Source: a virus
IMG/VR virus record: IMGVR_UViG_3300031218_000007
Reading direction: 5' to 3' (one strand)
DNA length: 33,703 bases
Numbering within the stretch: position 1 is the stretch's first letter; every line of letters begins with the position of its first letter. Positions 238 through 33,338 of this stretch are shown one piece after another. The notes beneath the pieces are model-generated. The model was not told the DNA's origin. It saw only the letters and a program-made list of their open reading frames with translations, and ran no database searches. A program made the translations under genes and the position numbers.

Positions 238-274
238 GCGTCCCTGCCGTTTATTCGGTGGGGGCGCTTTTTTT
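238..274 (+). terminator. Rho-independent terminator-like hairpin
   Basis: GCGTCCC (238-244) pairs with GGGGCGC (261-267) with one G.U pair, followed by a run of 7 T. Confidence 0.5.
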
Positions 275-285
275 CGTATAGGGTA

Positions 286-314
286 TTGACACGCGGGCAG
301 ATTGCTGCATTTGT
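286..314 (+). promoter_or_regulatory. Candidate promoter of a short terminated unit
   Basis: TTGACA (286-291), then 17-18 nt to ATTTGT/TTTGTA. About 100 nt downstream lies the strong terminator at 380-419. Confidence 0.35.
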
Positions 315-379
315 AGGCGTATCGAAAAGATTCGAAGCTTTGCAGGCACGAACAGTTTTCCCGTCCTAGTGACAATTTT

Positions 380-419
380 AGAACCTCGGTTTTCGCCTGC
401 AAAGCGCCGAGGTTCTTTT
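380..419 (+). terminator. Rho-independent terminator
   Basis: Perfect 10-bp stem AGAACCTCGG / CCGAGGTTCT with a 17-nt loop, followed by TTTT. Confidence 0.7.
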
Positions 420-578
420 GGTCTCAGTCAATAGGAGCAAGCGATGAGATCCATTAGCCCGAGTCCTACGGTGCAGTCGTCAACTCATAACTGGGGACTG
501 CTTAATACGGATTCGATGACCGCTTCAGGAATGTCATCGCGTGCACTACCCTGCTATCATGCCTACTCATCGGGAACT

Positions 579-622
579 GAGGCCAGCATCGGGGGTAGAG
601 CGAAAAGCTTGGCCTCTTTTTT
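579..622 (+). terminator. Rho-independent terminator
   Basis: GAGGCCA (579-585) pairs with TGGCCTC (610-616), followed by TTTTTT. Confidence 0.55.
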
Positions 623-743
623 AAGGACAGCACGATTCTCCCGTAATTCAAGGTTTAGGATTTAGGCTTTGGGGTATGGGGGAACCGTGCCCGTAGCCCG
701 GCGCAGCATTTTTAATAAGGTTTGCTACGTAGCATCCAGCCAC

Positions 744-4855: not shown

Positions 4856-4880
4856 CACACACACACACACACACACACAC
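4856..4880 (+). repeat. (CA)12 dinucleotide microsatellite
   Basis: Uninterrupted CACACA... run of 25 nt, ending 9 nt before the ATG at 4890. Confidence 0.95.
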
Positions 4881-5233: not shown

Positions 5234-6115
5234 ATGAAAAAACCACACGAAATCACGATCCCCGAAATCGACGAAAGCGCACCGCTCGCCCTATTTAATG
5301 GCGACCGGCTGAAACTGGAGATCGATAAGATGGAGCTAGAAATTAACTCCCTTGTCCTCGATCCAACCAACCCCGCAGAGCACAAACACTATGGCAGCAT
5401 CAGTCTAAAGATCGGCAAGTTCTTCGCTGCCATTGACCGAGCTGGAAAGTCGCTAGTCGATCCGCTCAAACAGGAAGCTAAAAAGGTTGACGCTCAGCGC
5501 AGCATTGCAAAGAGCCGAGGCGCAGAGCTCAAGGCTGACTTCCTGTTCCCGCGGACGCAATACGACGCCGAAGTCGCAGCACACGCCAAAGCGATCACGG
5601 ACGCGCTGGAGCTGATGCAGAACGGGCACCACCGCGTCGGAGAGTTTCGGACTACAACGCTTGCCGAGTGGGACGCGCATCTCGCAGCGATCAACGCCGT
5701 CGAGCTGTCGGAGTCGTTCTTTGGCGATCGCCTAGCCGACGCTCGTGAGCTGCAAGGCACGGCCATCGAAATGAACACGGCACGCCGCGCTAAGTTTATC
5801 GAAGATCAAGCCGCACTGGAGGCCGGACGCGCCGCCCTCAAGGTGCAGCAGGACGCCGAGGCAGCAAAGCGCCATGCTGAGCGCGTAGCGGCGCAGGAAA
5901 AGGCTAAGGGTGATGCCTCGCCCGCAAGGCCGCAAGAGGCAGCGAATCCTTTGTCACTGAGAGAGTGGGAATCAAGTATGGAATTACTCGTAAAAAATGC
6001 AAAGAATAATATTTACGGGCATCTTGTAGCTTACGGAATGCCCAAAGAAAGCGCAATTAAGTTCATCGACGCGATCGCCGATGGACTTACTGAGCACCTG
6101 AAAATCGTAGCTTAA
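5234..6115 (+). CDS. Hypothetical coiled-coil protein
   Basis: 293-aa ORF with an Ala/Glu/Lys-rich central helical region. Sits next to the recombination genes. Confidence 0.6.
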   Translation: MKKPHEITIPEIDESAPLALFNGDRLKLEIDKMELEINSLVLDPTNPAEHKHYGSISLKIGKFFAAIDRAGKSLVDPLKQEAKKVDAQRSIAKSRGAELKADFLFPRTQYDAEVAAHAKAITDALELMQNGHHRVGEFRTTTLAEWDAHLAAINAVELSESFFGDRLADARELQGTAIEMNTARRAKFIEDQAALEAGRAALKVQQDAEAAKRHAERVAAQEKAKGDASPARPQEAANPLSLREWESSMELLVKNAKNNIYGHLVAYGMPKESAIKFIDAIADGLTEHLKIVA

Positions 6116-6720: not shown

Positions 6721-6772
6721 CCTGTGCGCGGCGCAAGTCCGACCCTTGCGCTGCCACCAACACACACACACC

Positions 6773-8381: not shown

Positions 8382-8810
8382 ATGATAGACGAAAACACGA
8401 AACTAGAACACGGCGGAAGCGTCAAAATATCGGGTTTATGGCACGCCGTAGGAAGCTCGGCGATGCCAAGCAAACTTTGGTGTAAAATCGGAGATTTCCG
8501 CTATCCACTACGTCGAATGCTGTCGATCATCGAGGCTTACGAGCCGCCCGCACCGCCGCCGTTTAACTGGTCAACAGGCTGCGCAACGTTTGGCGACGAC
8601 ATCAACGCTGCGCTAACCGCTCAGCACGGCGACCCGACGATCCACACGTATGCGGGTGAGGATGCAGAGCGGTATGGGCTGGCTGCGGGACATCGCGTGC
8701 TGGCTTGGCACTCTGATGGGAAAGGGTGGGTAAGGGCGAACCTCGAAATATTAACGCGTGGCACCCAATGGCGCAAGCAGCCCGCAGCACCGCAGGAGGC
8801 GACACCATGA
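8382..8810 (+). CDS. Hypothetical protein
   Basis: ATG at 8382 inside track ORF 8304-8810, preceded by a CA-rich tract. Confidence 0.5.
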   Translation: MIDENTKLEHGGSVKISGLWHAVGSSAMPSKLWCKIGDFRYPLRRMLSIIEAYEPPAPPPFNWSTGCATFGDDINAALTAQHGDPTIHTYAGEDAERYGLAAGHRVLAWHSDGKGWVRANLEILTRGTQWRKQPAAPQEATP

Positions 8811-12321: not shown

Positions 12322-12379
12322 CAGTGCAACAAGCGGGAACGTCGCGAAGCCAAAACCGCGTAACACACACACACCCGAA

Positions 12380-17575: not shown

Positions 17576-17603
17576 CAGCCCCGCAGCAATGCGGGGCTGT
17601 TTT
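17576..17603 (+). terminator. Rho-independent terminator
   Basis: CAGCCCCGC / GCGGGGCTG 9-bp stem with a 6-nt loop, then TTTT. Confidence 0.75.
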
Positions 17604-17617
17604 GTGCACACAAACAC

Positions 17618-17632
17618 TTGACAACCTGCACA
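17618..17632 (+). promoter_or_regulatory. TTGACA..CCTGCACA promoter motif (predicts a leaderless transcript)
   Basis: TTGACAaCCTGCACA, CACTAT 16 nt downstream, then 7 nt to the ATG at 17653. Confidence 0.55.
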
Positions 17633-17652
17633 CACAACGCACTATCTACCCC

Positions 17653-18366
17653 ATGACACACGCCCCCCAACTCGCTACAGACTACTACGGCCAACCGATC
17701 AAAGGCTGGCTGCTTTCCGAAAAGCTGGACGGCATCTACGCAGATTGGACAGGATCAGAGCTTCGCACGAAGACAGGCAAGCTCATCCTATGCCCTACGA
17801 GCATCACAGACAGCCTTCCAGCGTTTCCCTTAGCGGGCGAGCTATGGGCGGGGCGCGGAGGGTTTCAGCGCGTTCTATCCGCCCTCAAATCTGGCATCTC
17901 TGGCGACTGGGCAAGTATTGAGTTTGTGGCATTTGACGCGCCCGGCTCACTTGCCCGCGCATCAACTCGGATGGAGATAACACAAAGCATCCCTAGCGTT
18001 AAAGCGGTATCCCAAACCGTAATTACCGACAAGCGCCACATGAAGCGCCTAGTCAAAGAGATACTAGCCACCGGCGGAGAGGGCGCAATCCTGCGCAATC
18101 CAGCATCACTATACACCGCTGGCAGGTCTGACGACTACGCCAAGGTCAAGCCCGTGCTATGCGACGAGGCGACCTATACGGGCAAGACAGTGACCACAGC
18201 GACGGGAAAAACTTCATTAATCTGCGAGTATCAAGGTGAGACCTTTAAACTCCACACCAACACGCCAGCAACTAAAGGCCAGCTAGTCACGTTTGAATAT
18301 TACGGACTGACAGACAGTGGCAAACCTCGGCACGCTCAGTTTATTGCAATCAGAGACTACGAGTAA
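17653..18366 (+). CDS. lig: ATP-dependent DNA ligase (minimal, ~237 aa)
   Basis: Motif I SEKLDG (KxDG), GELW, FVAFD, EGAILRNP and YAKVKP: the nucleotidyltransferase motifs I, III, IIIa, IV and V in order. Confidence 0.85.
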   Translation: MTHAPQLATDYYGQPIKGWLLSEKLDGIYADWTGSELRTKTGKLILCPTSITDSLPAFPLAGELWAGRGGFQRVLSALKSGISGDWASIEFVAFDAPGSLARASTRMEITQSIPSVKAVSQTVITDKRHMKRLVKEILATGGEGAILRNPASLYTAGRSDDYAKVKPVLCDEATYTGKTVTTATGKTSLICEYQGETFKLHTNTPATKGQLVTFEYYGLTDSGKPRHAQFIAIRDYE

Positions 18367-31955: not shown

Positions 31956-32348
31956 TTAAAAGAGGCATACGCCGTTTAAGTGGTCAAGCTCGCGCTGGAA
32001 TACGATGGCAGGAAGGCCGACTAACTTCTTGTCTTTGCTCTTACCTTGTTCGTCAATGTAGCGGACTTCGACGATCTTAGCGCGGCGCACTGTCGTAGTG
32101 CGCCCAGGGAAACTAAGGCAACCCTCCTTGGATGGCGTAGATCCGGTCTCACTAATAATCTCGGGATTGATAACCATGCCGTGCTGCCAAACAAACCAGC
32201 GCTTATTATGTCCGACTTGGTTTGCGGCCAATCCGACGCCCTTTTGCTCCCACATAAGTTTGGCTGCCTCTTTGTAGAGCTTGCGCGTTTCGTCAATATC
32301 CTCGACCTTGCAGCTGCGGGTTCTTAGGTATTTCGGATCTAGTTTCAT
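31956..32348 (-). CDS. def: Peptide deformylase, short phage type, with Arg in place of the first HEXXH histidine
   Basis: Motif 1 (GVGLAANQVG) and motif 2 (EGCLSFPG) are intact. Motif 3 reads QRELDHLNG instead of QHExDH (CGC codon at 31992-31994). The protein ends right after motif 3. Confidence 0.8.
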   Translation of the reverse strand: MKLDPKYLRTRSCKVEDIDETRKLYKEAAKLMWEQKGVGLAANQVGHNKRWFVWQHGMVINPEIISETGSTPSKEGCLSFPGRTTTVRRAKIVEVRYIDEQGKSKDKKLVGLPAIVFQRELDHLNGVCLF

Positions 32349-32664
32349 GTTTGTCGTGGTTGTCGTGTTCGTGTGAAAGTGTCCCCGCTTGCCTTATTGA
32401 GTTGCTGCACGGCGGGAGCGCGCACATCGCCGAAAGGCTCGGCCTTACCCTTAACATGCTTCGGGCTTCGATTCACTTTATTTTACGACCGTCTGGTCAT
32501 GGCATGGCAAAGTGTCCACCAACCGCGATCCCCCGCACTTCCTCGCGGTGTACTGCATATAGGACTATCAGACCCTTCGGGGGGCTGCTGGTGGGAGCAA
32601 ACGCAGACGGCGCGGTGTGCGCAGAGGGAAACAAAAACCTCGTCTGTGAATGCCCGTAAAATAG

Positions 32665-32699
32665 TGGAACTGGAGGGAATCGAACCCTGATGCAGCCCC
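32665..32699 (-). ncRNA. tmRNA/tRNA-Ala-like acceptor-stem plus T-arm minihelix
   Basis: Minus strand: GGGGCTG-CATC-AGGG-TTCGATT-CCCT-C-CAGTTCC-A. It has a T-loop consensus, a 7-bp acceptor stem with G3.U and G4.U, and discriminator A. There is no D arm or anticodon arm. Confidence 0.55.
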
Positions 32700-32725
32700 T
32701 ATGTGATAAAGAACAATTTAATCAA

Positions 32726-32748
32726 TAGTATATCCACGAGGCTCCACC
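32726..32748. repeat. Inverted repeat arm (pairs with 32936-32958)
   Basis: 23 positions against the other arm: 20 Watson-Crick pairs, 2 G.U pairs and 1 mismatch. Confidence 0.85.
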
Positions 32749-32935
32749 TACTTACGTCGTCAACTGCTGGAGTGCTGGCAATTGTCTTTCGACTCGCTCG
32801 TCATATCCAGATACCTCCTTTTATGCCAATGCGTCCATTGGGCGAACCTGACTCTTTTCAACTCCGTGCTGTTCAATCTTTGTAACGAACCAGCGGTGCT
32901 TGATCGTGAATGTCTCCACGTCGTAACCTGTGGCC

Positions 32936-32958
32936 GGTGAAGCCTCTCGGATATACTA
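32936..32958. repeat. Inverted repeat arm (pairs with 32726-32748)
   Basis: Minus strand TAGTATATCCGAGAGGCTTCACC pairs with GGTGGAGCCTCGTGGATATACTA, 187 nt apart. Confidence 0.85.
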
Positions 32959-33023
32959 ATAACTGGTAAAAGAACGGTGCCGTCTCTCCGGCTGTCACCC
33001 CTGTCTACGCTTGAGGTTTTGCG

Positions 33024-33046
33024 GCGTCAAGTCCAGCCCTTGACGC
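33024..33046. promoter_or_regulatory. Perfect palindrome GCGTCAAG-N7-CTTGACGC (operator-like, or an RNA hairpin)
   Basis: 8-bp arms, each carrying a TTGAC element, in opposite orientation. Confidence 0.5.
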
Positions 33047-33085
33047 GGGCTCCTGACGGTGTGAGCCGTCAGGCGAGGGGAAGTG

Positions 33086-33310
33086 TTAAATTAAGACGCC
33101 ATTACTATACACTTTTACACTTTCAATGTTAGTGCCTTTATTTTTAGCAAACCGAATCGCAGCGCGTTTGCTTGAAAATGTATGTTTTAGAGTTTTGCAC
33201 ATTTCCAGTGTGGTAAATAGTGGCGTCATGGTCTTGCGGTGCATTGACTGCGCAGCTGCAAGGGCGTCGGATTTTTTAACTTCTGAGAGGGCTGTATATT
33301 TGTTTTTCAT
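33086..33310 (-). CDS. Hypothetical protein (AT-rich gene)
   Basis: ATG at 33310 (MKNKYTALSEV...) inside track ORF 33086-33370. It follows a (CA)8 tract and a leader homologous to 2429-2509. Confidence 0.5.
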   Translation of the reverse strand: MKNKYTALSEVKKSDALAAAQSMHRKTMTPLFTTLEMCKTLKHTFSSKRAAIRFAKNKGTNIESVKVYSNGVLI

Positions 33311-33321
33311 ATTTCTTAGCT

Positions 33322-33338
33322 TGTGTGTGTGTGTGTGT
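33322..33338 (-). repeat. (CA)8 microsatellite on the coding (minus) strand
   Basis: TGTGTG... run on the + strand, lying between the promoter motif and the ATG at 33310. Confidence 0.9.

Follow-up and report, generated by a model that had tools for sequence, protein, structure and literature searches.

What is a transfer-messenger RNA (tmRNA, ssrA) with almost nothing between its two ends doing in a phage genome? The question is raised by a 35-nt element on the minus strand of a viral sequence of 33,703 nt (IMG/VR record IMGVR_UViG_3300031218_000007; this whole stretch is referred to as the window). A first-pass annotation had described the element as a minihelix that mimics the tRNA-like domain of tmRNA, and had suggested an alanine-chargeable decoy, a processing handle or the core of an integration site (att). 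That phages harbour tmRNA genes and 3' fragments of them, whether as cargo or as integration sites, is familiar; a genomic tmRNA reduced to exactly the acceptor/T-arm minihelix is not. The literature searched includes full phage tmRNAs, tRNA or tmRNA fragments that serve an anti-CRISPR protein and SmpB-like defence domains, and no encoded tmRNA minihelix. As judged from sequence comparisons, the element descends from a tmRNA gene whose ends have been joined; by a small measure we lean towards regarding it as a remnant of that gene.

The minihelix and its tmRNA ancestry

The element reads exactly where the first-pass annotation had placed it, at 32665-32699 on the minus strand, and is followed by CTA, which leaves CCA unencoded. 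Its acceptor stem comprises seven pairs (G1-C72, G2-C71, G3.U70, G4.U69, C5-G68, U6-A67 and G7-C66) with A73 unpaired, as had been claimed, and the minimum free energy structure is this very minihelix (-13.5 kcal/mol, 87% of the ensemble). The T-arm had been called canonical. Its loop, UUCGAUU, and four good stem pairs (AGGG/CCCU) justify the description, while the fifth position of the T-stem is a C.C mismatch. The connector between the 5' strand and the T-stem accordingly measures 4 nt, or 3 nt (CAT) if the mismatched pair is counted with the stem. With three mismatches allowed, the 35-mer occurs once in the window and in none of 100 shuffles. Its folding energy alone is unremarkable (z = -1.95, with 12 of 200 shuffles equally stable), and the significance of the element lies in its alignment to Rfam and its 23-mer signature rather than in thermodynamics.

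An ordinary tRNA or tmRNA gene can be ruled out, since ARAGORN called neither in the whole window and Rfam at gathering thresholds returned zero matches there. A tRNA-Ala gene in particular would need room for a D-arm and an anticodon arm, which 35 nt do not offer. The same negatives fit the earlier statement that a D-arm analogue, an anticodon arm, pseudoknots and a tag open reading frame (ORF) are all missing.

A sensitive scan of positions 32300-33200 (901 nt) with the Rfam tmRNA model RF00023 gave a different picture. Model positions 1-374 align across the minihelix with a 328-nt internal deletion: the 5' acceptor strand, T-arm, 3' strand and discriminator are matched, and the 328 interior positions are gone. 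At 20.9 bits (E = 2.7e-6 over those 901 nt) the alignment does not reach the gathering score of 47. Along the same lines, the 23-mer GGGTTCGAWTCCCNCCAGTTCCA, which is the 3' end of the minihelix, was searched in one genome per species across 185,579 species. It gave 47 genome matches, comprising 37 true tmRNA 3' ends, 8 tRNA-type genes and 2 unclassified fragments; none of the 47 was a minihelix form. No tmRNA among these representatives has the exact 23-mer, the nearest being 1 nt off. These nearest tmRNAs belong to Bacteroidales and Cytophagales (L098, for example), from which the 3' 25 nt of the minihelix differ at one T-loop position. Most tmRNA genes matched by the 23-mer likewise leave CCA unencoded. 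The acceptor stem formed by GGGGCTG and CAGTTCCA is also present in the intact tmRNAs L092, L095, L098 and L126, and the heptamer GGGGCTG opens these four as well as the phage tmRNA L334 discussed below. Because intact tmRNAs share the exact stem, the G4.U69 wobble and the alanine identity elements can be read as native tmRNA features.

Since RF00023 spans the element, the 23-mer is a tmRNA signature and the acceptor stem is shared with intact genes, these comparisons establish, as far as sequence can, that the element derives from a tmRNA gene with its two ends joined and its ~330-nt middle gone. The proposals that what it imitates is not a tRNA but the tRNA-like domain of tmRNA, and that it carries the alanine identity set (G3.U70 plus A73), are thereby borne out. 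The likeness to tmRNA extends over GGGGCTG, the T-arm with its canonical loop, the 3' strand with A73 and the G3.U70 pair, all parts of the tRNA-like domain. What sets it apart is everything else: the mRNA-like domain with resume codon and tag reading frame, the D-loop analogue, helix P2 and the ring of pseudoknots are missing, and the connector is 3-4 nt long. In related tmRNAs and in L354, a viral RNA described below, the T-stem is GAGGG/CCCTC with its fifth pair intact. Because of this, the broken pair of the minihelix is seen to sit exactly where 5' and 3' parts meet, and the C49.C65 mismatch looks like the deletion junction.

Several other architectures share parts of this design. Synthetic acceptor minihelices of tRNA-Ala and tmRNA have the same 7-bp stem with G3.U70, A73 and a stacked T-arm. 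They are laboratory constructs, whereas the minihelix of the window is genomic, is known from sequence alone and has an extra G4.U69, a 3-4-nt bulge and the mismatched fifth T-stem pair. The eukaryotic mascRNA/MEN-beta family (RF01684) has an acceptor and T-arm shape that RNase P can excise, combined with an unrelated sequence and a D/anticodon region that is kept; its model matches the minihelix weakly (19.9 bits, E = 0.31), which reflects the shared shape. Two-piece (permuted) tmRNAs are rearranged as well. In these the T-arm and 3' strand precede the 5' strand and the coding piece is kept, while the minihelix has the standard order and no coding part. Pairing with a downstream GGGTCTG to give such a permuted tmRNA was tried and rejected: the RF04321 match is at chance level (15.8 bits, E = 0.73), and the GGGTCTG lies in a flank also present in relatives without the element. 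A group I or group II intron was likewise discarded, since the 5' junction is not preceded by U, the last base is not G and Rfam has no match.

An accessory unit and the integration-site question

Did the two halves arrive together, or did a 3' fragment land beside a fortuitous complement? Three haplotypes can be told apart among the contigs retrieved for this phage population. That of the window (L001-L007, L351, L352) is 99.6-100% identical across the region. Two empty-site haplotypes, each ~90% identical to the window type, are both without the minihelix. Empty site A (L089, L345, L353) reads ...GGCACC GTTCTTTACCAC up to the junction and CATTTTACGGGC... beyond it; the same junction can be given as ..TTTACCAC followed by CATTTTACGG. 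Empty site B (L090, L091, L344, L347-L349) reads ...GGCAC GTTCTTTATCA and then ATTTCAGGGC..., or, in the alternative rendering, ..TTTATCA followed by ATTTCAGGG. The minihelix thus belongs to a discrete accessory unit of 39 nt (Table 1), and because the empty sites are without GGGGCTG, its 5' acceptor strand is inserted DNA and not a chance flank. Haplotypes with the minihelix only, with its mobile-element-like neighbour only or with a full tmRNA at the site were not found among these contigs. An opposite-strand ORF of 154 aa that crosses the site in L347 was dismissed as Cys/Arg/Gly-rich junk with frame-breaking indels between haplotypes.

The neighbour, passed over in the first-pass annotation like the accessory nature of the minihelix unit, resembles a miniature inverted-repeat transposable element (MITE). 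Its arms (32936-32964 and 32720-32748) are 87% complementary and form a long-range stem with z = -3.78. An 11-bp target duplication (GTTCTTTTACCA/GTTCTTTATCA) accompanies it 4 nt upstream of the minihelix, and relatives are without the element. Inverted repeats and target duplication, with no credible ORF or transposase gene, are what is expected of a MITE; of the dispersed copies that also belong to the definition, none was found in the window or in IMG/VR. The block of ~304 nt that ends in the minihelix was also considered as a single RNA or mobile element. This was abandoned because the junctions separate a MITE-like element with its own 11-bp duplication from the 39-nt unit, and hence reveal two insertions. 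The duplication ends 0-1 nt from the start of the minihelix unit, which seems too precise for two independent insertions. Within the MITE-like element, a perfect Shine-Dalgarno sequence (AAGGAGG, 32814-32820, minus strand) lies 9 nt ahead of the ATG of a 14-codon ORF, MTSESKDNCQHSSS followed by a stop (32760-32820, minus strand). Because the phage's own genes are almost entirely without Shine-Dalgarno sequences, the element may come from another genomic background.

These junctions bear directly on the proposal of an att remnant, according to which a host ssrA or tRNA gene supplied a copy of its 3' end and GGGGCTG stands upstream by chance. There are reasons to take the idea seriously. Fragments of tRNA or tmRNA 3' ends are common in viral contigs, and some are annotated as attP, as in Cronobacter phage phiES15 and, beside an integrase, in mycobacteriophage Oscar; such attP/attB blocks comprise a T-arm and 3' acceptor strand, as the minihelix does. 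A relaxed pattern scan of viral contigs, moreover, revealed no broad minihelix family: its more than 118 matches are tRNA-Ala genes, which match because their variable region mimics GGGGNNG, and 3' fragments of tRNAs or tmRNAs. Full 7/7 acceptor complementarity occurred there at about the rate of chance (~8 observed, ~9 expected). L174 was set aside as not tmRNA-like.

True att cores differ from the minihelix in two respects, in that they have no 5' acceptor strand and an integrase stands adjacent. The Oscar fragment lies ~90 nt upstream of a tyrosine integrase and is preceded by unrelated sequence without GGGGCTG. In the complete circular genome of the window phage, PHROGs and Pfam scans and the precomputed Pfam annotation gave no integrase or other site-specific recombinase. 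One 39-nt indel holds both the 5' strand and the 3' part, and the former was therefore not a pre-existing flank; an exact tmRNA 5' heptamer at the right distance has an estimated chance of ~2e-4. Nor does the exact 23-mer occur in any tmRNA of the species representatives. As to identity with a host 3' end, the nearest genome tmRNAs are 1 nt off, and the identical 23-mer stands in the viral contig L354. The first-pass annotation had held that an att remnant would be indicated by a 3' part matching a host gene next to a 5' strand not conserved in related phages. As worded this does not apply, since the relatives are without the whole unit. The att reading is largely refuted and by now highly improbable: these comparisons speak clearly against its being an att core. 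For annotation it is a caution that resemblance to a tmRNA 3' end does not by itself make a phage sequence an att site.

Reduced tmRNAs in other phages and the readings they allow

If the minihelix is a tmRNA with its interior removed, can such reductions be seen elsewhere? The searches described here were anchored on the two tmRNA ends, so that other decay products would go unseen. A scan of 241 million metagenome records for GGGGCTG, a short gap, a T-arm and CAGCTCCA, a pattern that excludes the window phage's own CAGTTCCA form, returned five loci (L139-L143). With two distinct elements in that many records, reduced forms are extremely rare; two patterns found no minimal tmRNA form in IMG/VR, and 50,697 GenBank phages gave no full-length match to the minihelix.

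One of the two elements is a 36-nt minihelix, GGGGCTGAGACGTGGGTTCGAATCCCGCCAGCTCCA followed by CTA, shared by L139, L140, L142 and L143 (the L142 group). It belongs to an AT-rich marine phage, in which a ThyX gene and the co-directional gene after it leave a gap of 70 nt; the element lies in this gap, 8 nt before the ribosome-binding site of the second gene. A small covariance model built from the minihelices and run on ~0.95 Mb of phage loci picked up a ThyX-syntenic relative of this group, the marine phage L334, with a full tmRNA directly upstream of ThyX (242-667, plus strand, 426 nt, tag AEKSADYQPTYAAA followed by a stop), which starts GGGGCTGA and ends GGACGTGGGTTCGATTCCCACCAGCTCCAC. The minihelix of the L142 group, GGGGCTGA plus GACGTGGGTTCGAATCCCGCCAGCTCCA, equals the 5' octamer and the 3' 28-mer of this tmRNA with 2 substitutions. 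As far as this alignment tells, the interior of a phage tmRNA has been removed here.

A further form came from an exact search of viral contigs with the 3' 23-mer, which led to L354 (IMGVR_UViG_3300032271_000983). At 8624-8703 on its minus strand is a tmRNA of ~78 nt reduced to the tRNA-like domain, which RF00023 matches end to end with 41.5 bits: the acceptor stem, D-loop analogue, a P2 stub and the T-arm are kept and 302 interior positions are lost. Its 3' 28 nt are 96% identical to the minihelix of the window, and the two contigs are otherwise unrelated. The RNA lies at the extreme end of the contig, which cuts off its first G, and is followed by a zinc-ribbon ORF and an HNH-endonuclease ORF. 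A second tmRNA-like 5' end in L354 proved spurious, lying inside the latter ORF.

Full-length tmRNAs, in turn, are an established phage cargo. Beside L334, a 235-kb viral contig (L045) carries one at 5413-5779 on the plus strand (tag ANNNYHYEQRLAA followed by a stop), ~1 kb from a peptide deformylase gene. A full tmRNA was found in 1 of 80 phage deformylase neighbourhoods and in 1 of 80 ThyX neighbourhoods. Such genes, including those of Melnitz-type marine phages (PMC9004378), resemble the minihelix in being phage-borne, accessory and placed among co-directional early or auxiliary genes; they differ from the 35-nt element in their 340-430 nt and their tag peptides. tmRNA genes have been reported in 2.3% of phage genomes, and ssrA fragments have been attributed to imprecise excision (PMC9004378).

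The second distinct element of the metagenome scan is a 31-nt minihelix on a GC-rich bacterial-type contig (L141). It could be a genuine att case, a remnant which may have acquired its 5' strand by chance. Some 135 nt upstream of this minihelix, in a region spanning 1048-1213 on the plus strand, there is a second GGGGCTGAGCAAGTCGATGCGG, tmRNA-5'-like and followed by a tandem AACGAGACGTA repeat; a tmRNA in advanced decay or the junction of an island may lie here. Short tRNA-like sequences ending GGGTTCGATTCCCACCAGTTCCA were also encountered on contigs of cyanobacterial metagenome-assembled genomes (L107, L108, L114, L119 and L123), where they adjoin a tRNA-Leu or tRNA-Gly gene. ARAGORN misses all five. 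Rfam calls L119 and L123 as tRNAs of 64-66 nt just above the gathering score (29.7-33.7 bits) and leaves the other three uncalled. They may be unusual tRNAs or the acceptor pieces of two-piece tmRNAs.

What, then, might the minihelix of the window be? We incline, if only just, to the view that it goes back to a tmRNA gene captured by the phage, and that what is left is a recent remnant under weak selection or none and not a dedicated device. The gene would have been reduced to its 5' acceptor strand, joined via 3-4 nt to the T-arm, 3' strand and discriminator, with the loss of the D-loop analogue, helix P2, pseudoknots and tag reading frame (~330 nt). The resulting 39-nt unit would have entered, or would survive in, one haplotype, within a non-coding stretch of a leftward operon, and the MITE-like element would have inserted later, 4 nt upstream of it. 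An internal deletion is suggested because the L142 group has a visible parent in L334 and because L354 can be seen as an intermediate. We favour a remnant because the T-stem pair is broken at the junction, the forms are rare and the sister haplotypes are without the element, and also because of the adjacent MITE-like insertion, the neighbouring deformylase gene with its mutated metal ligand and the identity of all copies. Purifying selection was not demonstrable: the copies in the window population are all identical and include no diverged conserved one, and in the L142 group the flanks are invariant to the same degree as the element. An empty-site comparison for that group found no homologous empty site, as 50 ThyX-syntenic relatives have different abutting genes.

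Several observations weigh against a mere remnant formed in this way. No relative retrieved has a full-length tmRNA between GTTCTTTATCA and CTATTTTACGG, and the relatives thus give no demonstration of a deletion in situ from a full gene. At least two unrelated phage lineages (that of the window and the L142 group) have nearly the same minimal domain, and L354 retains the tRNA-like domain only, although random deletions in a gene of ~360 nt would rarely be expected to yield the same minimal domain. All three elements lie between genes and are co-directional with them, a placement that hints at selection or a biased mechanism. The window, for its part, gave no promoter evidence for the minihelix. 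It is because unrelated phages converged on keeping the tRNA-like part, co-directional with genes, that functional readings stay alive.

What could such an RNA do? An acceptor/T-arm minihelix is the smallest unit known to be recognised in vitro by RNase P, the CCA-adding enzyme, alanyl-tRNA synthetase (AlaRS) and EF-Tu. If a leftward transcript crosses the element, the RNA would fold as a 12-layer coaxial helix. By analogy with the established biochemistry of minihelices, RNase P could cut at G1, the CCA-adding enzyme extend the 3' end and AlaRS charge it via G3.U70 and A73; at minimum, the minihelix would be a tRNA-like cleavage point in the leftward transcript.

Maturation and charging are at the centre of the idea that the element is a selected, alanine-accepting tmRNA mimic, which would disturb trans-translation or stand in for part of it, for instance by titrating AlaRS, EF-Tu or SmpB. 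It is an unlikely reading, to which the complete AlaRS identity set on an acceptor stem shared with intact tmRNAs lends some weight, as does the retention of the minimal tRNA-like part in the unrelated phages of the window, the L142 group and L354. Set against this are the great rarity of the form in IMG/VR, metagenomes and GenBank phages, the broken T-stem pair, the two sister haplotypes that manage without the element, and the fact that with all copies identical no conservation or covariation is demonstrable. Two parts present in L354, the D-loop analogue and the stub of P2, are moreover missing from the minihelix. The D-loop-analogue region is the SmpB contact side in published structures. 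In a variant of the same idea, the RNA would counter defences that recognise RNAs resembling tmRNA or tRNA, acting as a decoy or cofactor. Phages that carry full tmRNAs (L334, L045 and the 2.3% of phage genomes in PMC9004378), an anti-CRISPR protein served by tRNA or tmRNA fragments (PMC11662646) and SmpB-like domains in some defence systems (PMC11090510) count in favour of the idea in either form.

Could the minihelix instead punctuate a message? RNase P and 3' tRNA-processing enzymes would then excise it from a polycistronic leftward transcript, so that the messages on either side would become independent of each other in stability or translation. Processing signals made of tRNA-like elements are known from MALAT1/mascRNA and some bacterial operons, and minihelices are known RNase P substrates. 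The co-directional position, here and in the 70-nt gap of the L142 group 8 nt ahead of a ribosome-binding site, would suit this role, and the mascRNA model, weak as its match is, is in keeping with it. The task could equally be done by any stable hairpin or tRNA, however, which leaves the tmRNA-specific sequence unexplained; the 50 ThyX-syntenic relatives have neither such a gap nor such an element, and the sister haplotypes of the window phage are without it too. We consider this role quite improbable.

A more sweeping possibility, which we hold to be doubtful, is that phages repeatedly pare captured tmRNAs down to alanine-chargeable tRNA-like modules, to 78-nt forms like that of L354 and to minihelices of 35-36 nt like those of the window and the L142 group. 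Expressed, these would manipulate ribosome rescue, which may mean untagged rescue or a block of trans-translation, or would decoy or feed systems that recognise RNAs of tmRNA or tRNA type. If true, this would amount to a new class of phage-encoded, translation-directed small RNA. If the minihelix is expressed and charged, it would be a natural experiment on the minimal domain of tmRNA or tRNA-Ala and would open a way to study how phages cope with ribosome rescue; if it is a remnant only, as we lean to think, it documents the decay of phage-borne tmRNA genes. In either case the series from full gene through the 78-nt tRNA-like domain to the 35-36-nt minihelix makes the question of function directly testable.

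Genomic surroundings and host

Table 1 Features at the minihelix locus of the window
Feature	Positions	Strand	Remarks
Conserved upstream flank	down to 32976	-	from the junction comparison
Left copy of duplicated target, GTTCTTTTACCA	32964..32975	-	single copy in empty sites
MITE-like element, 250 nt	32715..32964	-	imperfect terminal inverted repeats of 23-29 nt
Right copy of duplicated target, GTTCTTTATCA	32704..32714	-	between MITE-like element and minihelix
CATA	32700..32703	-	between GTTCTTTATCA and minihelix
Accessory 39-nt unit (ATA + minihelix + C)	32664..32702	-	in the window haplotype, not in relatives; CAC micro-repeat flanks
tmRNA-derived acceptor/T-arm minihelix, 35 nt	32665..32699	-	GGGGCTG CAT CAGGG TTCGATT CCCTC CAGTTCC A
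Minihelix 5' acceptor strand, GGGGCTG, positions 1-7	32693..32699	-	same as the 5' end of many tmRNAs
Minihelix T-arm, CAGGG/TTCGATT/CCCTC	32673..32689	-	4 Watson-Crick pairs and C49.C65 mismatch
Minihelix 3' acceptor strand, CAGTTCC, and discriminator A73	32665..32672	-	wobbles G3.U70 and G4.U69; CCA unencoded
Conserved downstream flank, CTATTTTACGGGC...	from 32664	-	after the minihelix
Peptide-deformylase-like gene, 130 aa	31956..32348	-	Pfam Pep_deformylase PF01327, E = 5.7e-32

A peptide-deformylase-like gene lies ~320 nt downstream of the minihelix on the same strand, and the first-pass annotation had taken this as a hint of a translation-directed module. The comparison of haplotypes speaks otherwise. 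The gene is an accessory indel of its own, absent from the ~90%-identical relatives L089-L091, and ~290 nt retained by all relatives separate it from the minihelix indel. Its protein has QRELDH where 7 of 7 phage homologues compared have QHExDH, which replaces the first metal-ligand histidine by arginine, and judged by this motif the enzyme may be inactive or altered. The link between minihelix and deformylase is thus weak, and the notion of a joint module was not sustained.

The 290-nt non-coding stretch between them (32365-32655, minus strand) is 98% identical between haplotypes, compared with only ~90% for the neighbouring coding sequence. It was examined as a candidate structured RNA and rejected as such, with z = -0.76, no covariation, no Rfam match and no credible ORF.

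The window corresponds to metagenome contig JGI 3300035254 Ga0307949_000187 and has an exact 127-nt terminal overlap; its sibling contigs, 33.6-33.7 kb long, are circularly permuted with respect to it. Because of the overlap and the permuted siblings we regard it as a complete circular genome of ~33.6 kb. Among its genes are those for an ERF recombinase, a DNA methylase, both terminase subunits (small and large), the portal and the major head protein. A Shine-Dalgarno-like motif, weak at best, precedes no more than 5 of the 29 gene starts called with confidence, and the nearest large terminases are those of a Verrucomicrobia phage (25% identity) and of many Flavobacterium phages. From this scarcity and these terminases, the host is probably a member of the Bacteroidota or Verrucomicrobiota.

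Two further observations concern the genome at large. An ORF of 254 aa in the structural gene block (17602-18366, plus strand) gives matches to domains of ATP-dependent DNA ligases (PF14743 at E = 1.4e-7, above the cut-off; PF01068 at E = 5.2e-5, below it), an unusual place for a ligase. Tracts of (CA)n/(TG)n with 6-12 units stand at 33322-33337, 4856-4879, 6760-6771 and 12363-12374, one of them just upstream of an ORF of 74/94 aa in the leftward arm, and a similar dinucleotide tract, CACACACACACACAC, is found in relatives where the deformylase gene is missing; such tracts could be hot spots of slippage or recombination.

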